Shown: positions 6,042 to 46,050 of the stretch, one piece after another
How positions within the stretch are numbered: the first letter of the stretch is position 1
How the letters are laid out: each line of letters starts with the position of its first letter
IMG/VR virus record: IMGVR_UViG_3300044842_000287
Span: 6,514 to 70,513 of that record
DNA length: 64,000 bases
DNA from: a virus
Taxonomy: Duplodnaviria; Caudoviricetes
Direction: 5' to 3' (one strand)
Program-made: the position numbers and the translations under genes
Notes under the pieces: model-generated
What the model saw: the letters and a program-made list of their open reading frames with translations, nothing else
What the model was told of the DNA's origin: nothing
The model's database searches: none

Positions 6042-6587
6042 TTATTTCATCGTAAAGAGAACTTTGAGAACTTCCGTCGCTGTTCCCATGATGGCTTTGA
6101 AAACAGCGTTATCGGCAGTGTGTGTATGGGTGAGGATCGCCACCATGGCGCCGAGCACCACGAAAAAAGTGAACAGTGCAGCAATGGCCAAGCACTTGAT
6201 CAAGAAATAACGATGCCGACGTTTTTCTTTTTCTGTCTCGGTTTCATAATGGTCCAGGCCATCCCCACACCCTTCTCCTTCTTCCGCTTCCACTTGGCTT
6301 CGCTCACGCGTGGCGTTGCCTTTGTCGGATTGGGCGAAATGCGATAAATATCGATCGAGCAATCGATGCAGATCAATCGATGGCAGATGGGTCAGGTAGT
6401 GTTTGAACTCCTGCCCATAAGTTTCACCCGTCACCATTTTCAGGTGGTCGTCTTCAGCAGCCTGTGCTACGACCGCCAATGCATTGTAATTGCTCACCAG
6501 CTCGGCCACTGCCGGCGATTGGACAATTTGCTGCATGAGTTGTTTATCGTTCTCGATCTTGCGTAGCACATGGCCGATGACGCGCAT
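6042..6587 (-). CDS. Membrane protein with C-terminal TM helix (possible lysis accessory)
   Basis: KRRHR followed by a 24-aa hydrophobic helix; lies directly downstream of the spanins. Confidence 0.5.
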   Translation of the reverse strand: MRVIGHVLRKIENDKQLMQQIVQSPAVAELVSNYNALAVVAQAAEDDHLKMVTGETYGQEFKHYLTHLPSIDLHRLLDRYLSHFAQSDKGNATRERSQVEAEEGEGCGDGLDHYETETEKEKRRHRYFLIKCLAIAALFTFFVVLGAMVAILTHTHTADNAVFKAIMGTATEVLKVLFTMK

Positions 6588-28672: not shown

Positions 28673-29182
28673 CTATCTAGCCCACTCCCGCATCGCCATG
28701 ATACCGTTGTCCAGGAGTGAGTCATATTCAGCGATCAGTTCACCGTGTTCATCGTACATGCCGTGTTGTTTTAAGAGTTGACGTAATCCTTGCCCTAACT
28801 CGTAAACTGCACTGGCGTGTTGATTCTGTTCAGGGGTATTGGCTAGACTACGGATATGCTCATCGGCTTCCGGACCATAGAAATCCTGCGCTAAGCGTTG
28901 TACGCCTTCGTTCAAGAGTTCAGAGATGTGCTTGTCCAACTCTTCGTCTTTATCCGACAAAGCACTGATGCACGGAATCAATTCGGTGAGTTCAACGTCA
29001 GCGACATCATACTCCGTTAAGGGCGCGCCTTCAGCGATGTTTTCGTAACGGGCTTTAGGAGACGCTTTGAAATAGGTCTCTAATACCGGCGTGATATCCA
29101 CCAGATAGTAGTGACCGGGGTGCAGCGGGAGTTGCTCGAACGACGTGGCGTCGCTAAAACTAGGTTCAATATAGGAAGACAC
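28673..29182 (-). CDS. Hypothetical protein, paralog triad member
   Basis: Shares hhhDh N-terminal and hYd C-terminal motifs with the two upstream genes. Confidence 0.6.
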   Translation of the reverse strand: MSSYIEPSFSDATSFEQLPLHPGHYYLVDITPVLETYFKASPKARYENIAEGAPLTEYDVADVELTELIPCISALSDKDEELDKHISELLNEGVQRLAQDFYGPEADEHIRSLANTPEQNQHASAVYELGQGLRQLLKQHGMYDEHGELIAEYDSLLDNGIMAMREWAR

Positions 29183-29612
29183 TCGATACCTCCGGCCGGA
29201 CGGCTAGGTATAATACATCGTCAGTAATGTGTTCGAAGCTGGCGCACAGGATGCTGTTCTCGTTATAGAGGCGATGCACCTGCAACAGTTTGAACATCTC
29301 TTCAGCAAAACCGTACAAACAGTACGTGTAATTCTGGTAGCCCTGATTATCCATCTGTTTCAGAAACTTAAGCGGATGGTATTTGAAGAGCGGCGAGACG
29401 TTCGTATCGGTAATGAGCAGCGTATAATGCGCCATGAAGGACATCACCGCCACTGGCTCATTCTCAAAGTGCCCGATCATTTGCTCGACGACCATGTGGA
29501 TATACTCGGTCTGGAGCTGTGCAGGCACTTGTGGGTTAGCATAAGCGTTGTGATAAGCCCGGAATCGACTGATCACGGGAAAAACATCGATTGTGTAAAT
29601 ATGCGGGGTCAT
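29166..29612 (-). CDS. Hypothetical protein, paralog triad member
   Basis: IYTIDVFPVI...RLYNENSIL...VLYLAVRP. Confidence 0.6.
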   Translation of the reverse strand: MTPHIYTIDVFPVISRFRAYHNAYANPQVPAQLQTEYIHMVVEQMIGHFENEPVAVMSFMAHYTLLITDTNVSPLFKYHPLKFLKQMDNQGYQNYTYCLYGFAEEMFKLLQVHRLYNENSILCASFEHITDDVLYLAVRPEVSSVFLY

Positions 29613-30058
29613 GGTCGACTCAGGTAAAGGGTGCCGTTTTCGTAATCATGAAAGTCGAAGCGGTGAATGTGGGTCGGGTCGTACATATTGAACTCCACAA
29701 AGCGCTCCACCATTTTTTGCATGACTACATGCCAACACTGACGCTGGAGAGAAGACAGCTCGGTGCAGTCGAAGTATTGCGGCGCCGCATCCAGCACGTC
29801 ACGTATATTGCTGGTTGCGGGCTGATGCCCGCTGGGCAAATAGCCGACTTCATGATAAAGGTCAAAGAGGAATGCTCCGATACTACCGTACTGTAAGTTT
29901 TCATAAGCAGGTTTCTCTCCGTATGCGACAATGGTGGCGTGCATCTGTTCCAAGATGTCACTGACATCCACCACGACAAGACGGTCTACAGAACCGCGGT
30001 AATCTTCAGGCGTAAGTTCAACAAAGTCGTCCATCATTCGAGAAATAGCTGAGCCCAT
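29609..30058 (-). CDS. Hypothetical protein, paralog triad member
   Basis: LVVVDVSDIL...NMYDPTHI...TLYLSRP. Confidence 0.6.
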   Translation of the reverse strand: MGSAISRMMDDFVELTPEDYRGSVDRLVVVDVSDILEQMHATIVAYGEKPAYENLQYGSIGAFLFDLYHEVGYLPSGHQPATSNIRDVLDAAPQYFDCTELSSLQRQCWHVVMQKMVERFVEFNMYDPTHIHRFDFHDYENGTLYLSRP

Positions 30059-30642
30059 CGTTCTGAGTTCTCACTGTTATCTATCTTGGCGTTGATCTCC
30101 ACGATTTCAAGCGGGGGGATCAGCCACGAGGTTACTTTGGGTTCGACAGGGGAGGTTCGTGGATTCAGATCCAGCTGCACGATCATGAAGTCAAACGGAT
30201 TCGGGGTATGGTGATGCAGATAGCGTTCAACAATAGAACGCGCTGCGATCTCTTCCTCGAATTGTTGCTGTACGGGTTTGATGACCCCGTTCTCCGTCCA
30301 TGCCACCGAACTTGCCGGCGCCACTACGCTAGAGAGCGTGTGAATCAAATGGTCGTTACGATACCGCTCTTGCTTGAAAGTAAAGATGCCATCTTCAAAT
30401 TGCCAGATCTCACGACGACGCATTAAAAGTTGGCGATGACGTGACAGCGTATCGAAAGTGACGGTGGTTACATGTCGGCCACTGTCGACCGGTTCAATCC
30501 GCAACGCTTTAAGGCGGCGCGGATGAAAGTTAAGAATAGTCGGGCGAATAGCCCGCGGAATGGCCACGGTCAGTTTGAGGTGGCGATAAATGGCGATCGG
30601 CATGATGGTGAGAGGAAGTCGGAGTCGTAGGATATCCCCCAT
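30034..30642 (-). CDS. Hypothetical protein (start uncertain)
   Basis: About 200 aa ORF downstream of the hairpin at 30671-30686. Confidence 0.55.
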   Translation of the reverse strand: MGDILRLRLPLTIMPIAIYRHLKLTVAIPRAIRPTILNFHPRRLKALRIEPVDSGRHVTTVTFDTLSRHRQLLMRRREIWQFEDGIFTFKQERYRNDHLIHTLSSVVAPASSVAWTENGVIKPVQQQFEEEIAARSIVERYLHHHTPNPFDFMIVQLDLNPRTSPVEPKVTSWLIPPLEIVEINAKIDNSENSERWAQLFLE

Positions 30643-30693
30643 GGATGAAAAAAGAAAATACGGCATAACACCTCCCCGTAGGGAGGCGTACCT

Positions 30694-31118: not shown

Positions 31119-32024
31119 TTATTTGAACATATCACGGGCTGCGCGAGCTTGTCGATCACGGACTTCGTCGTAGGTTTGCACCAACGAATCTTCCACCCCG
31201 TACGTCGGGGCTTTACGGTTGAGCGGGATATGACTGGCCCACCGAGGTTTGCCTTGATCCACCATCTGCTGATCGAACTCACGGGACGGTGCCGCAAACA
31301 ACATGAAGGGAGGCATAGCTGGTGTGTATTCACCATCGATCAACATCAGGATCGCGCGCGCCACTTCTTGACACGCGCCCTTCTCTTTGGTGAAAGAGCC
31401 GATACCTTCAGCGATCCGGTATATAGTCCCGATAAATTCTTCCCGCATTTGTTGCGGGGTAAGTTCAGGTCCACGTACCCCGCCAGCATCCTCACCGTAA
31501 TACTTTCGCATTACTGGATAGAACTCGTCATGCAGCATGGTGGAAATCACGAGGTCAGGATCGTGCCAGTTTTCACCGTTCTCGATACAATCGTTGACGT
31601 AATCTTCGCCCGGATCAAAATACATGTTCACTGGTGGGATACCGTTTCCCCTCATGCCGTCGAGAAAGACAAGATTAGAAAACGCTACACCTTGGCAGCG
31701 GTCTTCGAGAGTACCAGCATTCGGTTCGTTAGCCCAATACCGAGCGTTGTCAACGAACCCCTTGACGATCATCTCGATACTCTCTTCACGAGTGTAGGGG
31801 CGTGGTCCGCCCGGAGGGCTGGGTGGCGGAAGTTCAATCGCGGGTTGCTCGTAGACATTTACGATGCCGCGTTCTCTCAGAACCTTTAACACGGCTTCCT
31901 TTGCCACTTCGTCGATCATCTGGTTGACTTGTTCCCGGATGAGTTCCTTCTGCGCTTCCGGGCTAAAGGGGAGATCAGTCGTGATCGGTGGAATGGGTTT
32001 CTTCGGGTTATCATCGCGCGGCAT
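31119..32024 (-). CDS. AARDLF-module family protein 1 (two module-core copies)
   Basis: Ends RDRQARAARDMFK; internal EDRCQGVAF and GACQEVAR cores. Confidence 0.7.
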   Translation of the reverse strand: MPRDDNPKKPIPPITTDLPFSPEAQKELIREQVNQMIDEVAKEAVLKVLRERGIVNVYEQPAIELPPPSPPGGPRPYTREESIEMIVKGFVDNARYWANEPNAGTLEDRCQGVAFSNLVFLDGMRGNGIPPVNMYFDPGEDYVNDCIENGENWHDPDLVISTMLHDEFYPVMRKYYGEDAGGVRGPELTPQQMREEFIGTIYRIAEGIGSFTKEKGACQEVARAILMLIDGEYTPAMPPFMLFAAPSREFDQQMVDQGKPRWASHIPLNRKAPTYGVEDSLVQTYDEVRDRQARAARDMFK

Positions 32025-32032
32025 GATGGCTC

Positions 32033-32554
32033 CTATTCGATCTCTTCGCCATAGTTAAACAGGTCGCGCGCTGCGGCTGCCAAACGGTCGCGATGCTGAT
32101 CGTAAATGGTTCCCACAGCTTTTGTGATCGTAACAGGGTCATTCGGCGAACTATCGAGTTCCACAGGACCAGTTGGCCATTGATGCATCACGTAGTCTTC
32201 CCGATTTAAATCATAATGCGAGCGATGTTGACTTTCAGGGCGAACGATGGCAACGGATGCTGTACCGTGATTTTGTCGATATGATTCCGATTCGGGTATC
32301 GGCAGCAACGCAAACGGCGGCGTGGTCTCCGAACCTTCTTTCAGAAGCTCGAATACAGTAAAGACCGCGCCGGCGACTCGGTCATCAGCCGTAAGTCGTG
32401 GGTTTTGGTTATTCGTCCCGAAGGCCGACTTGGCACGCCGTAAGGCTGCGTGAGCCAACGCTTCTAGGGCTTGTTCACGGGTTAGGGTCGGGGTCGACTC
32501 GTATTGGTTATCGGACTTGCCAATCTCGTCGACACTCAGAGTCTTCTTAGTCAT
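32033..32554 (-). CDS. AARDLF-module family protein 2
   Basis: Start reassigned to MTKKTLSV (overlaps the upstream stop); ends RDRLAAAARDLFNYGEEIE. Confidence 0.7.
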   Translation of the reverse strand: MTKKTLSVDEIGKSDNQYESTPTLTREQALEALAHAALRRAKSAFGTNNQNPRLTADDRVAGAVFTVFELLKEGSETTPPFALLPIPESESYRQNHGTASVAIVRPESQHRSHYDLNREDYVMHQWPTGPVELDSSPNDPVTITKAVGTIYDQHRDRLAAAARDLFNYGEEIE

Positions 32555-33335
32555 CGTAAGGATCTCCAAATAGGTCACGTGCAGCGGTACGATAACGCTC
32601 ACGCATCATCTCGTACATGTTCTGGTAACGATCGGTAAGGGAGCCCGGCGGACTCTTAGGGTCAACCCCATAGACCGGTGGTTTCCACGTCAGATCCATG
32701 GGTTGGCCGAAATTCCATTCCGCCATCACGCGTTCGCCGTTACGCTCCACCGCGGTCACGCAGCCACTTTCTGTTTCTGGGTCAATAGGGGTGAGTTGGA
32801 AGGCAGGGATCTCGTAAACCTCATGGCCGTTCTGGATCATGCTCAGGACTTCATGCACAGCCCCGTGCACGCGCTCCGCTACACCCAATCCCTCTTCCCC
32901 GCGTTCCACCCAGTGTTTGCCAATCCAGTACGCTGCATCAGCGACTTGATTGATCTGCTCATTGACATCCATTTTTGGCAAAGCATTGGGATTCTCTGCC
33001 GTGGGTTGTTTGTAGGTGCCGATATGGCGCACACCGTCGCCCGCGTGGTTGATTTTGTCGACACTGATTTCGATGACACTACGGATGGTATCAACCAGAC
33101 TACGTTTTTGATCAAGCGGTAATTTGTTTAATGCTTTCTCGACGGTACGGTCACCCTTGAGCTTTACGGCGCTAACCACACAGAGCGCCGCTTCGCGGAT
33201 AGGATCATCGATCGGCCACATGTCGTAGATGATATCCCGACTAGCAAAATCGTGCACCATGTCAATAGCAACCTTGGCCGACCGATATGCTGGATCATCG
33301 GGATCAGTCGGCGGTAAGTATTCTTCTCGCTTCAT
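32547..33335 (-). CDS. AARDLF-module family protein 3
   Basis: ERVHGAVHEVL core; ends RERYRTAARDLFGDPYDD. Confidence 0.7.
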   Translation of the reverse strand: MKREEYLPPTDPDDPAYRSAKVAIDMVHDFASRDIIYDMWPIDDPIREAALCVVSAVKLKGDRTVEKALNKLPLDQKRSLVDTIRSVIEISVDKINHAGDGVRHIGTYKQPTAENPNALPKMDVNEQINQVADAAYWIGKHWVERGEEGLGVAERVHGAVHEVLSMIQNGHEVYEIPAFQLTPIDPETESGCVTAVERNGERVMAEWNFGQPMDLTWKPPVYGVDPKSPPGSLTDRYQNMYEMMRERYRTAARDLFGDPYDD

Positions 33336-33340
33336 TGTGA

Positions 33341-34231
33341 TCAGTCCTTGAACAGATCTTTGGCTGCTCGGATCGTACGCTCTTTGATCTGATTAGCGTA
33401 CGTCATGTCGTAATACGCATCGTAGACACGGTTAGGGTTGAACTCACCAACGGGTGTTGGTTGTGGCACCTTACCACTGAAGCGCAACCCATAGGCTTCG
33501 CGAATGGCCCCATGGCAGGCTTCTAACTGCGTCAGGCCAGGTTTGGTACCCCAGCGGCCGGCGATCGCGTGGAAGTGGCGGAGTTCGTAGTTGAGGTCAT
33601 CAATACGGCGGTCCTCATCTATCGCGGTTTGACCATACCCTGGCATTTCATCCGTGTCTGCCGCGCCCATGATCGCACCCATGACTTCCGCGGGTTGTTC
33701 TTTCCACTCATCCACCGACCAGTATGCCACTTCACGCCCAGCGCGTACCACTCGCACGTAATCGCACGGGGTGGGATAAGGCGGCACCCGGATCTCGTTA
33801 CCGTTGTTCAAACGTAGTACGTGCTCATCTCCATAATCGGTGTTATGAACAACGTTTTCGGCTTTGGGTGCGTCGACTGCGGATTTTTCGTAGATGTTGT
33901 TTTTCGCGAGGACAGAATCGATGTGCATCTGAGCAAACTCTGTCAACACATCAACAATTTCTTCTTGATTCTCAGTTTCGAAGTTATCAAACATTTTTCG
34001 ATAACCGCGATCGCGCAAAACGCAAATTGCACCATTCGCTATTGCTCTTGCTTCGTTCACGATCGGTCTGCCGTCATACCCAGTTTCTTCTAAAGAAACG
34101 GAATTATGCTCAAAAGCAAATTTAGCTTCCTCCCTGATTTGCTTTTTATACCACTCACTTTGATGCCCGTATTTATCATCGGTATTAAAATTCGAACCGA
34201 GACCAATAACGCTATTTTCGCTCATGGTCAC
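33341..34231 (-). CDS. AARDLF-module family protein 4 (three-domain mosaic)
   Basis: EACHGAIREAY core; ends QIKERTIRAAKDLFKD. Confidence 0.7.
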   Translation of the reverse strand: MTMSENSVIGLGSNFNTDDKYGHQSEWYKKQIREEAKFAFEHNSVSLEETGYDGRPIVNEARAIANGAICVLRDRGYRKMFDNFETENQEEIVDVLTEFAQMHIDSVLAKNNIYEKSAVDAPKAENVVHNTDYGDEHVLRLNNGNEIRVPPYPTPCDYVRVVRAGREVAYWSVDEWKEQPAEVMGAIMGAADTDEMPGYGQTAIDEDRRIDDLNYELRHFHAIAGRWGTKPGLTQLEACHGAIREAYGLRFSGKVPQPTPVGEFNPNRVYDAYYDMTYANQIKERTIRAAKDLFKD

Positions 34232-35016
34232 TCCTTGAACAAGTCACGTGCTGCGCGAATCGTGCGCGATTCGATCTGCTCAGCGAAACGTTCGTCAAAA
34301 CGGTTATCGAAGGCGCGCGCTAGGCCGGTTTGGTAATTGTTGGGTCCGAGCATGCCATAATCGAGAATCGTATCACCGAACTCGACTTGATCATGGTGAC
34401 GGGCCCGCGCTTCCATGTAGTCGGGATGGGGCGACAACACGAGTTGCAACAATGGCAATCCCTCACCATCTGGGCGGTTACCTTGGCCACCGTCAATGAT
34501 ATCGAGCACACTGCGGGCAGTTCGGATACAACGTTCGACCGTAGTGAAGTTACCGGGCTCCTCACCATGTTTGATGGCGGTGTCGATCAAAGCATCGAAT
34601 AAGAACTCGCGCACTTGCGGCATCTCGACCACCCCGGTTTTCGAAACCAACAGCCGATTGTTGAGCGACTTGTAAGGATGTTCGTCGATCGCCACGATCC
34701 GCTCGTACAAGGATTCGGCGGCAGCCGCAGCGTTGGCTTGCTTGAAGATCTCGGCCACAACGTCGGTGAGATCTTTCCTCGTCGTTTTATCGATCTCGTG
34801 ACCCGAGATACCCGTGCGATCTGTCACGTAAGTGATCGCTGCTCGCGTTGCGAAATCGACGGGGGTCTTGAGGGGCGCGCCACTATACCACGTGTCGTCC
34901 TTGTTCTTTTTCGCGTGCTGGATATACCCAGCGGCCTGATCGTGAATGTAACGTTCTTCGAGCGCTTTACGCTCTTCATCCCAATCGCTGCCGAGGTCAT
35001 CGGCTCCTTTATCCAT
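34228..35016 (-). CDS. AARDLF-module family protein 5
   Basis: ERCIRTARSVL core; ends QIESRTIRAARDLFKE. Confidence 0.7.
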   Translation of the reverse strand: MDKGADDLGSDWDEERKALEERYIHDQAAGYIQHAKKNKDDTWYSGAPLKTPVDFATRAAITYVTDRTGISGHEIDKTTRKDLTDVVAEIFKQANAAAAAESLYERIVAIDEHPYKSLNNRLLVSKTGVVEMPQVREFLFDALIDTAIKHGEEPGNFTTVERCIRTARSVLDIIDGGQGNRPDGEGLPLLQLVLSPHPDYMEARARHHDQVEFGDTILDYGMLGPNNYQTGLARAFDNRFDERFAEQIESRTIRAARDLFKE

Positions 35017-35076
35017 GATGATATCCTTTCATTATCGCGCTAGGCGTTGCCACCTAGCGCTTTGTTGTGGAGAGAT

Positions 35077-36039
35077 TTATCGACCGAAACGAGCCAGCTT
35101 CCATTTCAGCATCGACTTGATCCGCTTGTAATTCTGTTTCACCCACACGCTCGGTCGTTTGATAGGGTGCCAGAGTACATTCTTACGACGGCCTTTGAAC
35201 AGACGAATCTGCATCGTGCCAAAGCTGCCCAGCTTATCATAGCCCTGGTTGGGCAGACCGTAGTAGAACCGGTTACGGTCTTCTTCAGCCACGAATTCCC
35301 CGTCACCGCCGATGTCGACGATTTGCAGACCCGCCAGCTTAAGGATGGTCGCCCACGTGTTCTCGTTGTGACCCGACCAGCCGCCTTGGTAATACATCTC
35401 GATGGTATCGAGGGCTTGCGCCGTGATGCGGAAGATCGGCAGGAAGATCAGCCACGAATCATCCGGTTGGATGTTTTGCGGTGTCACGAGGTGCGAGGCA
35501 TAGGCCCAGCCTTCGTAACCACGGGCCAAGTGCGTGGCCAGCAGATCACCCGGCTTGCGGTTGAGGTCACTGAACAATTGAGCGAGGTCGCCGGAATACT
35601 CAACATCGTCTTCCACCAGCCAGTATTGGCTGTACTGCGGATTCAGACGGCGAAACAGCAACGTCACCAGATCAGAGTTGCCCGGGATCAGGCGAAATTC
35701 CTTGGCGGCACCTTTGTTGGGGTAACCCAGCGTACGGATGGCATCCAAGCTGAACACGTAGTGCTTGATCTCGATGCCGCCGATCACCAGCTTACGAATC
35801 TCTGTGGTGGTGTTCGGCAGATACGACGCGATTGCGAACTCGTGATTCGGCCCCAGCTTCGTGAAAGCGTTGCGGAAACGGAGCAGACGCTTCTTGACGC
35901 TGAGTGGATCGGTGGTGAGGAACAGCAGGACTTGCGGGGCCGAGTTGTTATGGATTGCGGTTTGTTTCACGGTGGACTGGACAGCAGATTGATAGTCGAA
36001 GCCAGTATCCAGAAGACGCAATTGCGTAATGTCGTTCAT
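35077..36039 (-). CDS. Putative GT-A glycosyltransferase-like protein
   Basis: YWLVEDDVEYSG (xDD metal motif after a hydrophobic strand); FLPIFRIT..AL; ENTWAT; C-terminal WHPIK. Confidence 0.5.
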   Translation of the reverse strand: MNDITQLRLLDTGFDYQSAVQSTVKQTAIHNNSAPQVLLFLTTDPLSVKKRLLRFRNAFTKLGPNHEFAIASYLPNTTTEIRKLVIGGIEIKHYVFSLDAIRTLGYPNKGAAKEFRLIPGNSDLVTLLFRRLNPQYSQYWLVEDDVEYSGDLAQLFSDLNRKPGDLLATHLARGYEGWAYASHLVTPQNIQPDDSWLIFLPIFRITAQALDTIEMYYQGGWSGHNENTWATILKLAGLQIVDIGGDGEFVAEEDRNRFYYGLPNQGYDKLGSFGTMQIRLFKGRRKNVLWHPIKRPSVWVKQNYKRIKSMLKWKLARFGR

Positions 36040-36137
36040 TGTGATTTCCTTTTGTTAATTTGAGTTATACACGGACCAAGCAGCGTACCACCACAAAAAG
36101 ACGTATCTGGCTTTCGAACTATCCCTAGTTGGAGTGC

Positions 36138-37307
36138 TTATGTGCCAAACATCTTCTTTGCGGCGTTGATGCGATTCTCTTCCATGCGGCGAGCAATCTC
36201 GTCGAAAGTCCCGCTCAGACTTTGCTGATTGGGTTGAATCAAATTCATGGGTTGATGGAAGTTCCAGATTCCCGGAACACTGCCGACACCATCGCGCCAA
36301 ACAGCGGTGGTGTAATCGATGCCATTTGGATGCGGAATCGGCACCAGTTGCATCGGCGGGACAGAATTACCGTCGCCATATTCAAACATGTCTAACACGT
36401 CGCGGATAGCGCCGCGGGCTATGTCATGGCGTGATAGCTTATCCGAGCCAGCCCACGTGTTAGCGATGTGCGCCATCGCATTGGCGAGATGCTCGTACTG
36501 TTCTGGCTCAGTCATCACAACCGGAGTTGTTTCGTACAGTGCCGCGCCCATGGGTTCGTTACTCGCTTCCTGGGTTGCGGGAATCGGGTTATACACGGTG
36601 TTCAGCTTTTGCGATACTCCGAGTGCTACTCGACGCTGGACGGTCGGGTCCTTGAACCCCGTCAACATTCGCTCAGTGACTTGGGTGATCTGATTGACGG
36701 CGGCCCCATATTGGCCATCGGCGATCGCTTGGTTGATCGAAGGTCCGTACGTGCCTGCCACAGTTGAACTTGAGAAAGCGAAGTAATGCGGCCCTTGGTA
36801 TTCGCTCCACCCGCCGAATTCACCCAGCCTTGGCTTGCTGCAATACCATGCTGCGTCGACTTGGTAACTTTCCAGTCCATGACCATCGTCCATGAGAGCA
36901 GCCAGCTCGAACAGCCATTTGAGTTCTGGCGTTTCGTAAGGATCGACTGATTTCATGTAGTTGGTATGTTCGAGCGCATGGGGATGCTGATCTGTCCCAA
37001 AATGCTTGAATAGTACCGTGAAGATTTGTGCGAGGTTGGAACCAAAGACGTCTACATCAACGCCACCCATTTCCTCGTCGGCGAACGCAGGGAAAGGAAG
37101 ACCGAGCGAAGAAAACAGCCCTTTTAAATCTTCTCGCAGACTTTCCCAGATGGCAGCGCGATCCATGAACTCGCCCCGGGCGATATACACCTCGCCGTTA
37201 CCTGGGTAAGATTCATCGAGGTTATAACAACCAAACAAAGCCCTGATAACGGGAGTCACGGCTTTGACCCGCATCGTGCCGACCATTTCTTCGTAATTGT
37301 TAGCCAT
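36138..37307 (-). CDS. AARDLF-module family protein 6 (ICE-like N-terminal domain)
   Basis: DIARGAIRDVL core; ends RMEENRINAAKKMFGT. Confidence 0.7.
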   Translation of the reverse strand: MANNYEEMVGTMRVKAVTPVIRALFGCYNLDESYPGNGEVYIARGEFMDRAAIWESLREDLKGLFSSLGLPFPAFADEEMGGVDVDVFGSNLAQIFTVLFKHFGTDQHPHALEHTNYMKSVDPYETPELKWLFELAALMDDGHGLESYQVDAAWYCSKPRLGEFGGWSEYQGPHYFAFSSSTVAGTYGPSINQAIADGQYGAAVNQITQVTERMLTGFKDPTVQRRVALGVSQKLNTVYNPIPATQEASNEPMGAALYETTPVVMTEPEQYEHLANAMAHIANTWAGSDKLSRHDIARGAIRDVLDMFEYGDGNSVPPMQLVPIPHPNGIDYTTAVWRDGVGSVPGIWNFHQPMNLIQPNQQSLSGTFDEIARRMEENRINAAKKMFGT

Positions 37308-37309
37308 TG

Positions 37310-37759
37310 TTATTCTCCGAATAATTCTTTAGCGGCCCTGATCTGACGGTTTTGAATTTGATCTGCGTAGTGCGTATCGTAAAGTTGATTGTATTTCTTA
37401 GATAGAATTTCCGGATCACCTTTGGTTTCGTGGTGGCTTAGGTAATAGAGCTTCGTGAGTTTGTGGCAAGCTTCATTAACCGTAATGTCGGGTATAGCTG
37501 CCACAGTCTCGGCAATGTTAAAGTAATTGCAAGCTTCACTGTGTTGTCGTCTCGATTGCCACCGCAGTGCCTTCTCCGTCAACTCAGCGATAAGATCATC
37601 CACGCTGCGATCACTACGTTTGAGCATATTGGCGTATTCTGCCCCCAAACGACCCAAGACTTCATTGTCGATCTGATCACGCAGCTTATCAAGTTGCTGA
37701 TAGAAATCCTGATAGAGTGCTACGATTGGATCGTTTTCTTTAGCTTGTCTACCCTTCAT
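37310..37759 (-). CDS. AARDLF-module family protein 7
   Basis: EACHKLTKLY core; ends QIQNRQIRAAKELFGE. Confidence 0.7.
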   Translation of the reverse strand: MKGRQAKENDPIVALYQDFYQQLDKLRDQIDNEVLGRLGAEYANMLKRSDRSVDDLIAELTEKALRWQSRRQHSEACNYFNIAETVAAIPDITVNEACHKLTKLYYLSHHETKGDPEILSKKYNQLYDTHYADQIQNRQIRAAKELFGE

Positions 37760-37761
37760 CT

Positions 37762-38511
37762 TTAGTCTCCGAATAAATCTTTGGCGGCACGGATCTGGTT
37801 TTGCCGGATCTGCTCGCTCAGATGGGTGTCGTAATGTTGGGCGTAAGCTTTGCCGGCGCTGATCGGGTAAGCTTTCTGGATGGAATCTGGGACGTAGTTT
37901 TCGAGTGGTCCGATGTTGATGGGTTTTTGATCGACGCCATAGAGCGCATACAGGTCATGCGCCACACCGTGGCAGCGTTCCATTGGTGTCAGGTCCGGTT
38001 CTGTAGCCCATTGGTTGGCGATATCGAACGCTTGACGAATCTGGTGGGTGCGCAACTCGACAGCGCTGTCGATCGCTTCTTTTTCGTAGTGTTCGGCGCG
38101 CAGACGATTCTTTTCATGAATCGCATCGCGTTCTTCTTGCGACAATTTATTCCACTCTTGTTCCCATCCTTGATCGCCCAACATCATCGAACGGGCCAAA
38201 ATGAGTTGAGAAGCCACCAGTGAACGCATGTGCAAAACGATGTCGGTGTTTTCAACTTGACGCTCGCTGGCCCACTCCTTGACCCATTTGTCATTCGCCA
38301 CCATGGCGTAGGTTTCGTCCGGCACGTTGGTTGACATGCCGATCTCAAGATTCGTCATGCGGTCGGCGACTGCGTCAGTGACATCATCAATCACGCGTAG
38401 CAGACGAACTGGGTCCGTGTCTTTTGGGATAAACGACACGGTAATCACTGTACGTGGCCCCATCTCCTCTTCTTGTTTGTCCATCTCTTGGCGATCGTCA
38501 TCTTCAAACAT
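37762..38511 (-). CDS. AARDLF-module family protein 8
   Basis: Start reassigned to MFEDDDRQ (SD AAAGGA); ERCHGVAHDLY core; ends QIRQNQIRAAKDLFGD. Confidence 0.7.
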   Translation of the reverse strand: MFEDDDRQEMDKQEEEMGPRTVITVSFIPKDTDPVRLLRVIDDVTDAVADRMTNLEIGMSTNVPDETYAMVANDKWVKEWASERQVENTDIVLHMRSLVASQLILARSMMLGDQGWEQEWNKLSQEERDAIHEKNRLRAEHYEKEAIDSAVELRTHQIRQAFDIANQWATEPDLTPMERCHGVAHDLYALYGVDQKPINIGPLENYVPDSIQKAYPISAGKAYAQHYDTHLSEQIRQNQIRAAKDLFGD

Positions 38512-38581
38512 GGTAAATCCTTTTAAGTGAAAAATAATCATGGAGGCGTCAACCCCCATGATTATCGTTCCGGATCAGAAA

Positions 38582-39136
38582 TTAGCTGGGAAACAACTCG
38601 CGCGCCGCGCGGATGCGACGGTTCTCGATTTCGCTCATGAAGTGCTGCTCGAATTGCTGCACATAAGCGTCATGGCGGACTTGTTGCCGCTTCTGTCCTG
38701 ACTTGGTGAGCTGATGGTCCATGGTGTAGACTTCGTGGGCTGTTCCATGGCAACGCTCTAGTGGGGAGAGGTCCTCACGCTGTCCCCATCGGTTGGCGGC
38801 ATCAAACACCGCTTTGGTTTCTTCTTGCCGCAGCGCCGTCATGGTCGCTTTGGCATCGGCATTGACTTCTTTCACCAGCGACGCATCGCGGGTTTTTGGT
38901 TTGGCGGTTTTCGCCGCTTTGGGTTTGGTATGCTCAGCCGTTCTGGCTGGTTTGTCCACCTTTTTGTATTTGGTGGGTTTGATCGGGTGTTTCGCGTCCG
39001 CGACCTCGATCGTGGGGTTGGTGAGATTGTCTTCCACCAGCTCCATGACCTTGACGACCGTGTCCGCTGGCTTGCCCTTCGACGTTCCGGTAGCTGCCAC
39101 CACGATCGTGTCTTGCTCTTTAGCCGACTTACGCAT
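38582..39136 (-). CDS. AARDLF-module family protein 9 (Lys/Ala/Thr-rich N-terminus)
   Basis: Start reassigned to MRKSAKEQ (SD AAAGGAG); ERCHGTAHEVY core; ends EIENRRIRAARELFPS. Confidence 0.7.
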   Translation of the reverse strand: MRKSAKEQDTIVVAATGTSKGKPADTVVKVMELVEDNLTNPTIEVADAKHPIKPTKYKKVDKPARTAEHTKPKAAKTAKPKTRDASLVKEVNADAKATMTALRQEETKAVFDAANRWGQREDLSPLERCHGTAHEVYTMDHQLTKSGQKRQQVRHDAYVQQFEQHFMSEIENRRIRAARELFPS

Positions 39137-39234: not shown

Positions 39235-39256
39235 CCCTACCCCATGAGGGGTAGGG
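39235..39256 (-). terminator. Hairpin upstream of the module array
   Basis: 9-bp stem followed on minus by TGAGTATGCCGTC. Confidence 0.55.
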
Positions 39257-43369: not shown

Positions 43370-43377
43370 GTAATATA
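43370..43377 (-). promoter_or_regulatory. phiKZ-type early (virion RNAP) promoter TATATTAC
   Basis: Exact match on minus, intergenic, with an upstream T-tract. Confidence 0.6.
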
Positions 43378-43414: not shown

Positions 43415-43443
43415 CCTCCCCTGCCCGTCATGGGCAGGGGAGG
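43415..43443. terminator. Hairpin with CATA/TATG flanks
   Basis: CCTCCCCTGCCC-GTCAT-GGGCAGGGGAGG. Confidence 0.65.
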
Positions 43444-43454
43444 GTTATGCTCGC

Positions 43455-45996: not shown

Positions 45997-46026
45997 ACTG
46001 TTTCCTTTCGTAGAGACGGCATAAAA

Positions 46027-46050
46027 AGAAGGGAGCCGAAGCCCCCTTCT
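46027..46050 (-). terminator. Intrinsic terminator
   Basis: cUUCGg loop hairpin followed by TTTTTATGCCGTC. Confidence 0.75.

Follow-up and report, generated by a model that had tools for sequence, protein, structure and literature searches.

A tandem gene array of a probable nucleus-forming jumbo phage lineage joins one C-terminal module, with a predicted dimer interface and a conserved terminal helix, to varied N-terminal domains

Introduction

Different proteins can be brought to one partner by a common C-terminal peptide, as the SSB-Ct and the clamp-binding tails of T4 gp33, gp55 and gp43 illustrate. Here we describe an array of nine genes on the minus strand of a 64,000-nucleotide stretch of viral DNA (IMG/VR record IMGVR_UViG_3300044842_000287, positions 6,514 to 70,513; hereafter, the window), lying at positions 31119-39136, whose products carry varied N-terminal domains (cargos) and end in one shared module closed by a conserved helix (the tail). 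The likeness to the hub-docking tails above is a functional analogy only, as the sequences are unrelated, and the array adds a predicted dimerisation domain of its own and a dedicated set of genes. A further likeness is offered by the beta-clamp motifs Q-phi-x-[LM]-[FL], including DnaE QADMF and HolA AMSLF, in which a short near-terminal [DE][LM]F motif is likewise found on many otherwise unrelated hub-docking proteins (PMC11139829); the array tail, however, lacks the Gln, is basic at position 2, is helical and carries an extra conserved Arg and Ala-Ala pair.

Expansions of paralogs are known from large phages, such as the ~35-copy zinc ribbon expansion of phage G (PMC7824862) and the arrays of more than 30 similar genes in jumbo phages (PMC13282480). 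Like these, the array is a tandem run of diverged paralogs in one orientation, built on an uncharacterised domain and situated in an accessory region, but here a C-terminal module is fused to several unrelated cargos, some of them shared with plasmids, and copy number is modest, with five stable single-copy classes. Families of paralogs in phiKZ-like phages also include the head proteins of SPN3US and phiKZ (PMC5694885); the array has no similarity to Pfam phiKZ_IP, and in relatives the phiKZ_IP gene is a separate neighbour. We found no description of the core domain, the tail or the architecture in the literature, and what is new is the combination of an undescribed predicted-dimer domain, a conserved terminal ligand, plasmid-shared cargos and a dedicated regulatory element. 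We propose, with our judgement evenly balanced, that the array encodes dimeric adaptors that present two tails to a common partner.

Results

One module ends nine tandem genes

The first-pass annotation of this DNA had listed nine open reading frames (ORFs) that share the C-terminal motif AA[RK][DEK][LM]F. All nine are present at those coordinates, and the motif is indeed limited to them: it occurs in exactly nine of the 907 ORFs that a six-frame translation of the 70.5-kb contig yields, always within 1-7 residues of the stop, with a chance expectation of ~4e-6 per ORF end. The termini also align as a single module, as leave-one-out hidden Markov models (HMMs) find each held-out member with E values of 3.6e-11 to 4.6e-21 (best non-array ORF, E of at least 0.012). 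As for the N-terminal parts, which had been called unrelated, they mostly differ, but the genes at 32547, 33341 and 34228 have a domain of ~115 residues in common, termed N1 below. Shine-Dalgarno context and database products point to 39136, 38511, 34225 and 32554 as likely true starts. The members, all on the minus strand, are:

38582..39136, minus: member 1, 184 residues; Lys-rich N-terminus, short module and tail; database product P0015; orthologs in related loci L004 and L028
37762..38511, minus: member 2, 249 residues; acidic N-terminal domain, short module and tail; its last 102 residues served as the homodimer query
37310..37759, minus: member 3, 149 residues; short helical N-terminus, divergent short module and tail
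36138..37307, minus: member 4, 389 residues; mobile-element protein (about residues 1-240, window 36591-37307), long module and tail
34228..35016, minus: member 5, 262 residues; N1 domain (34678-35016), long module and tail
33341..34225, minus: member 6, 294 residues; N1 domain (33851-34225), plasmid-type domain of ~60 residues (33644-33850), short module and tail
32547..33335, minus: member 7, 262 residues; N1 domain, long module and tail
32033..32554, minus: member 8, 173 residues; short N-terminus, long module and tail; database product P0006
31119..32024, minus: member 9, 301 residues; intact ancestral core (31509-31811), a second, diverged core, and tail

The module has two parts, namely a copy of a core domain, either full or reduced to a helical hairpin, and the lineage-specific helix R-x3-[AS]A[KR][DE][LM]F. 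Five members (31119, 32033, 32547, 34228 and 36138) have a long form of ~115-145 residues with a recognisable long core, the core being present twice in 31119, and four (33341, 37310, 37762 and 38582) have a short form of ~85-100 residues that retains only the hairpin and the last helix. The hairpin and the tail appear to do different jobs. A second short common motif, roughly N-x-Y-E-x-P, stands just before the module in most window members.

The hairpin is a predicted dimer interface

When two copies of the 102-residue module of member 2 were modelled together, the binding score was 0.77, and the highest-scoring of three controls gave 0.00. Of 30 solved one-chain pairs, 20 reach the mark used for this score, as does one of 23 single chains; these counts hold roughly here, where the alignment was author-built. 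The runs agree in at least 98% of contacts, with a predicted local distance difference test (pLDDT) value of 87. The named interface comprises residues 1-46 and 63-83 and none of the tail (84-102), its hairpin residues being A14, A18, W21, A22, C33, H34, V36, A37 and L40; that the tail goes unnamed does not prove it to be free. We therefore consider it probable, on this model, that the module homodimerises via its hairpin, which supports, for the hairpin, the earlier suggestion of an oligomerisation domain. That the hairpin survives in the pared-down members may be explained by its being the predicted interface. The model leaves the best-conserved part of the module, the tail, without a role in the dimer.

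The central interface residues are common to most array classes and to stand-alone cores, while the peripheral ones vary. Since nearly all classes have the central residues in common, heterodimers may also arise among co-expressed members, a suggestion that we make tentatively and hold somewhat less likely than its opposite. In the short modules, the Cys and the two His of the segment ERCHGxAH fall on a single helix that lies at the predicted two-fold axis, with a C33-C33 contact; the segment is possibly a metal or disulfide site, one without counterpart in stand-alone cores.

The tail is conserved as protein

The tail is a helix of ~20 residues, the first half of which corresponds to the core's last helix, the second half being new; it may derive from the core's own LH[ED]LF end. 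Searching 1.84 billion representatives with a profile yielded 254 matches, and about half of the best 150 of these end in the tail, most of the others being tail-less cores. Among 125 distinct tails, R at -9 is found in 88%, A or S at -5 in 99% and A at -4 in 92%; the residue between AA and [DE], position 2 in the register of the clamp motif, is Lys in 54% and Arg in 24%, followed by D (51%) or E (32%), L (83%) or M (16%; L/M together 99%) and F (100%, in a set anchored on the motif; 97% in an unanchored alignment). These tails end mostly 1-2 residues before the stop, and the tail is the most conserved part of the module.

Third codon positions of the tail motif are randomised (34% identity at identical residues), and Ser in the tail is encoded by both TCN and AGY codons. 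Since third positions are randomised, the tail is, as judged from its codons, selected as protein and not as DNA. Its conservation together with these randomised positions suggests a partner-binding surface, and we lean towards the tail binding an outside partner. The codons for the 1-2 residues after the F often double as the Shine-Dalgarno of the next gene, which accounts for how often the proteins end in G-E/D or K-E/D.

The core is a widespread phage protein

The core is a widespread stand-alone phage protein, a point absent from the first-pass annotation. Its intact form of ~100 residues is kept in member 9, and relatives stand alone in small and large phages, with carriers including Salmonella phage Seszw, Acinetobacter phage AB1, Klebsiella phages, RP12, Phabio and Eowyn. 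The AlphaFold (AF2) model of the core (pLDDT 93) shows a two-helix hairpin, a loop-strand-helix excursion and a final helix, and matches uncharacterised viral models only (AB1gp38, template-modelling (TM) score 0.84). The stand-alone proteins, i.e., AB1gp38, PHROG 29367 and 27353, RP12 A0A1L7N105 and the Seszw and N4-like homologues, resemble the module in fold (TM 0.84 and 0.80) and in a helix-1/helix-2 motif that is intact in member 9; those examined differ in being mostly single-copy and without the tail.

Foldseek found no match of the core model to solved structures at E<=0.001. The best VIA match had a Z of 5.5 and a root-mean-square deviation of 3.6 over 54 aligned residues, the folds compared including the sponge proteins Tad1/Tad2/Acb2 and TetR; no solved fold relative came out of these searches, which does not establish the core fold as new. 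A TetR identity was considered and rejected, as the Atlas TetR rows have TM<0.5, TetR_N gives no match and the tail resembles TetR helix 1 superficially. When the core, module, tail and N1 profiles were run against PDB sequences, the only matches were to designed helical proteins or fell short of significance, and locus scans with single array proteins gave no match. The first-pass annotation had allowed for the module being an already characterised domain; no characterised family scored above the curated Pfam/NCBIfam cut-off, and Pfam, NCBIfam and named PHROG searches gave no family for any member.

Cores also occur in other arrangements. P0026, P0043, P0115, P0148 and L001:5950-7041 (Erwinia phage pEa_SNUABM_54) have 2-3 tandem cores per protein, with an additional C-terminal domain in P0115, and Klebsiella phage Eowyn has at least two separate core homologues. 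In another jumbo phage lineage, the cores of P0077 (L043:8001-8813) and P0106 end in an acidic, SSB-tail-like DDIPF/ADIPF; in locus L043, two core genes lie side by side, with Tad3-like and AcrVA2-like genes and TATATTAC motifs nearby. By analogy, a DDIPF-ended core in such company may serve as a supporting parallel for the adaptor proposal.

Cargos are shared with plasmids and shuffled

The cargos, which are shuffled, fall into about six or seven kinds rather than nine. In member 4, the first 240 residues correspond to a stand-alone protein of 220-230 residues of Pseudomonas, Burkholderia, Cupriavidus and other bacteria that is often plasmid-borne. The ~60-residue domain of member 6 is found on Pseudomonas and Variovorax plasmids, and in other phages it is joined to long-core modules. 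The earlier idea of a portable module grafted onto different proteins is thus upheld, and on these comparisons grafting is real for at least two cargos, those of members 4 and 6.

The N1 domain (~115 residues) of members 5, 6 and 7 occurs with different module classes across phages, and a search with it gave no homologue of similar length. A free N1 domain lies inside the array of the complete genome G002 (L029:11189-11575; G002 227027-227389), and locus L031 has a similar gene of 128 residues; such a free gene is possibly an intermediate of cargo gain or loss. Between member 6 (33341-34225) and L028:12191-12856, synonymous divergence (dS) by a crude count is 0.45 in the N-terminal part and 1.6 in the module, and the lower N-terminal value suggests a recombination join inside the 33341-34225 gene.

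The array is old and has expanded in place

At the same site, seven related loci have 7-10 members and one incomplete locus at least six, while the distant relative L044 has three, all ending in DLF. Member 4 has a single-copy ortholog in eight related loci and is absent from L044. A module tree of 130 columns, from which L033, L044 and L032 (nearly a duplicate of L031) were left out, groups by class and not by genome, its deep forks being weak. The five long-core classes consist of single-copy orthologs; in the short-core clade, membership ranges from 3 to 5, with turnover. Adjacent co-oriented genes with a homologous domain make this a tandem paralog array, with foreign genes inserted at varying positions among loci and cargos swapped between module classes across phages. 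For ortholog pairs, nonsynonymous divergence is far below dS in module and cargo alike (crude count), and each class is kept under purifying selection. Taken together, these sequence comparisons show an array that is old, lineage-specific and expanded in place from ~3 to 7-10 genes.

In two complete genomes that bear the array, G002 and G003 (271-272 kb), the module and its motif are confined to the array and no other gene has them, a finding that speaks against a general tag for nucleus import or packaging. Both genomes encode ChmA and gp69/PicA homologues, which map away from the array, and the lineage is therefore very probably a nucleus-forming, Chimalliviridae-like jumbo phage. The window makes up most of a linear viral contig of 70.5 kb (26% complete) that encodes a phiKZ-type major capsid protein, a DnaB-like helicase and a polymerase subunit (PHROG 3231, 3213 and 2943). 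Among cultured phages, the nearest GenBank capsids are those of Burkholderia phage FLC9 (41%) and Ralstonia phages RP12/RP31 (38%), and the relatives of capsid and cargos suggest a host among the beta- or gamma-proteobacteria. The module was not found in the cultured relatives FLC9 and FLC4-3B, and RP12 and FBKp24 each have one core without the tail; hence no cultured model of the array was found among the relatives examined.

Elements and genes around the array

The other features of the locus are:

35077..36039, minus: inserted non-member gene, 320 residues, without the module and without a homolog in the related loci examined
38533..38566, minus: 15-bp hairpin with a T tract, terminator- or attenuator-like, between members 1 and 2; conserved in L004, its start also in L028
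39197..39221, minus: conserved promoter- or operator-like element AAAnGTTGCnnnGGTTAAAnAATA, 60-85 nt upstream of member 1; putative function
39235..39256, minus: GC-rich hairpin with GAGTATG after it, which probably terminates the operon upstream; L004, L005, L028, L029 and L030 have similar hairpins here
43370..43377, minus: TATATTAC, resembling an early promoter motif and belonging to the upstream operon; in the window it does not directly adjoin the array

Having neither the module nor a homologue in related loci, the 35077-36039 gene is an insertion into the array. Its product has a VEDD motif and looks glycosyltransferase-like by eye; Pfam, PDB, phage and related-locus searches gave no match for it.

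The motif TATATTAC, which we take to be the phiKZ early promoter motif, is intergenic and conserved in seven related loci, and stands directly before the array in L003. With one mismatch allowed it is not enriched in the window, so that its weight comes from its conserved intergenic position; sigma-70 promoter counts in the window are at chance level. The core of AAAnGTTGCnnnGGTTAAAnAATA is invariant in eight aligned loci and present also in L033, and the exact core is single-copy per genome, at the array. Its AT-rich half lies ~24 nt before a conserved G, and phiKZ middle promoters have a weak AT-rich motif at -24 (PMC7598289); we infer that AAAnGTTGCnnnGGTTAAAnAATA fits a middle promoter of the phiKZ type.

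GC-rich hairpins followed by TATG, not a clean U-tract, recur at operon ends in the window (30680, 39235-39256, 43415-43450 and 46010-46040) and in related loci. Downstream of the array lie four minus-strand genes (28673-30666) whose order is kept across almost every related locus, the distant L044 among them, and for which Pfam and PHROG searches gave no match.

Discussion

The comparisons show that a small phage domain, single-copy in many unrelated phages, gained the C-terminal helix R-x3-[AS]A[KR][DE][LM]F, and that copies of the resulting module were joined to different N-terminal cargos, some also plasmid-borne, the cargos being later swapped between classes. Helices 1-2 are predicted to pair symmetrically, the tail staying outside the named interface, and we propose that each dimer would offer two tails to one partner, most likely a cytoplasmic host or phage hub protein. 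Such shared docking would gather different cargos at one place during early or middle infection, under a dedicated promoter, and the likely job would be host takeover or counter-defence. A bolder version, in which any two of the 7-10 products pair via the hairpin to give dozens of cargo combinations, the tails dock each pair bivalently on one host or phage hub, and new cargos arrive by fusion from plasmids or other phages, strikes us as rather unlikely.

Several observations weigh against the adaptor proposal. The dimer model comprises two copies of one short member, and residues outside the named set are uncertain in it; interface positions show no significant conservation excess over other helix positions (P=0.07 for the array, P=0.60 for stand-alone cores); heterodimers are not assured, given that peripheral interface residues vary; and in member 9 the two cores are not confidently oriented relative to each other (AF2 predicted TM score 0.54). 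Moreover, Pfam, NCBIfam and PHROG searches gave no known function for any cargo, the timing of expression is read from motifs, and the tail could still drive higher-order self-assembly.

This last point leads to a different picture, in which the tails bind other members and the 7-10 products co-assemble as a particle, filament or lattice with varied cargos. A complex of subunits would be expected to show what complete arrays do show, i.e., five long-module classes each in single copy and an order that is mostly kept, and a single operon with its own conserved upstream element, translational coupling through post-F codons that often form the next Shine-Dalgarno, and the predicted hairpin dimer (0.77 vs 0.00 for the control; 20/30 vs 1/23) would all suit it. 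Short-module members, however, range from 3 to 5 with turnover of classes, one relative has three members only, and foreign genes are inserted at varying positions, and we think such an assembly unlikely. Were the module instead a cassette for recombination and translation, a gene end with a ribosome-binding site and no shared protein function, then cargo swapping, member turnover, the doubling of tail-end codons as the next Shine-Dalgarno and the ortholog pair with unequal dS (0.45 for cargo and 1.6 for module, by the crude count) would follow readily. The randomised third positions (34%) and the two kinds of Ser codon, TCN and AGY, speak against it, as do the longest inter-tail DNA repeats, which are 62-83% identical over 41-61 nt, and the keeping of the motif in last genes and in genes that precede terminators. 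For the AAxxLF part the cassette is largely refuted, and as a whole we deem it very improbable.

Two further alternatives give the tail a specified destination, and each seems to us improbable. The first-pass annotation had entertained a sorting tag for head packaging or nucleus import, and a cargo-specific tag for the phage nucleus, the early phage infection (EPI) vesicle, the membrane or the virion would suit a lineage with ChmA and gp69/PicA homologues; an amphipathic C-terminal helix ending in LFG is also loosely like the membrane-targeting helix of MinD. Such a tag is disfavoured by the confinement of module and motif to the array in the two complete genomes, by the mapping of the ChmA and gp69/PicA homologues elsewhere, by the lack of similarity to the phiKZ internal-head family (PF12699 not matched) and by a hydrophobic face that is mostly Ala and probably weak for a membrane helix; nuclear import, for its part, is reported to read surface features and not terminal signals (PMC13282480). 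The tail might otherwise be a non-canonical ligand of the host beta-clamp (DnaN), like the HolA helix ending in AMSLF, that tethers cargos to host replication or repair or blocks it. The near-terminal x-x-[DE]-[LM]-F fits the last three positions of Q-phi-x-[LM]-[FL], the clamp motif's [LM][FL] anchor, preceded there by Asp/Ser, has its counterpart in the tail (D 51% or E 32%, then L 83% or M 16%, then F 100%), HolA too has Ala at position 1 (PMC11139829), these phages encode no DnaN-type clamp, and a core with an SSB-tail-like peptide exists in another jumbo phage. Yet position 1 is Ala (92%) and not Gln, position 2 is Lys or Arg (54%/24%) and not aliphatic, and the near-invariant R at -9 and the Ala-Ala pair lie outside the clamp motif; moreover, a Gln-to-Ala change is reported to weaken clamp binding, and the HolA peptide alone to bind poorly (PMC11139829).

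The majority of accessory genes in nucleus-forming phages lack an assigned function. The tail peptide, conserved in more than 100 diverged sequences, is a bait that could name the shared target of 7-10 of them, and that target would hint at the roles of two plasmid or mobile-element families and of a widespread small phage domain. If the members of the array do form heterodimers, the phage would here build functional diversity by combination and not by point mutation, and the module could serve as a compact dimerisation-plus-targeting part for engineering.

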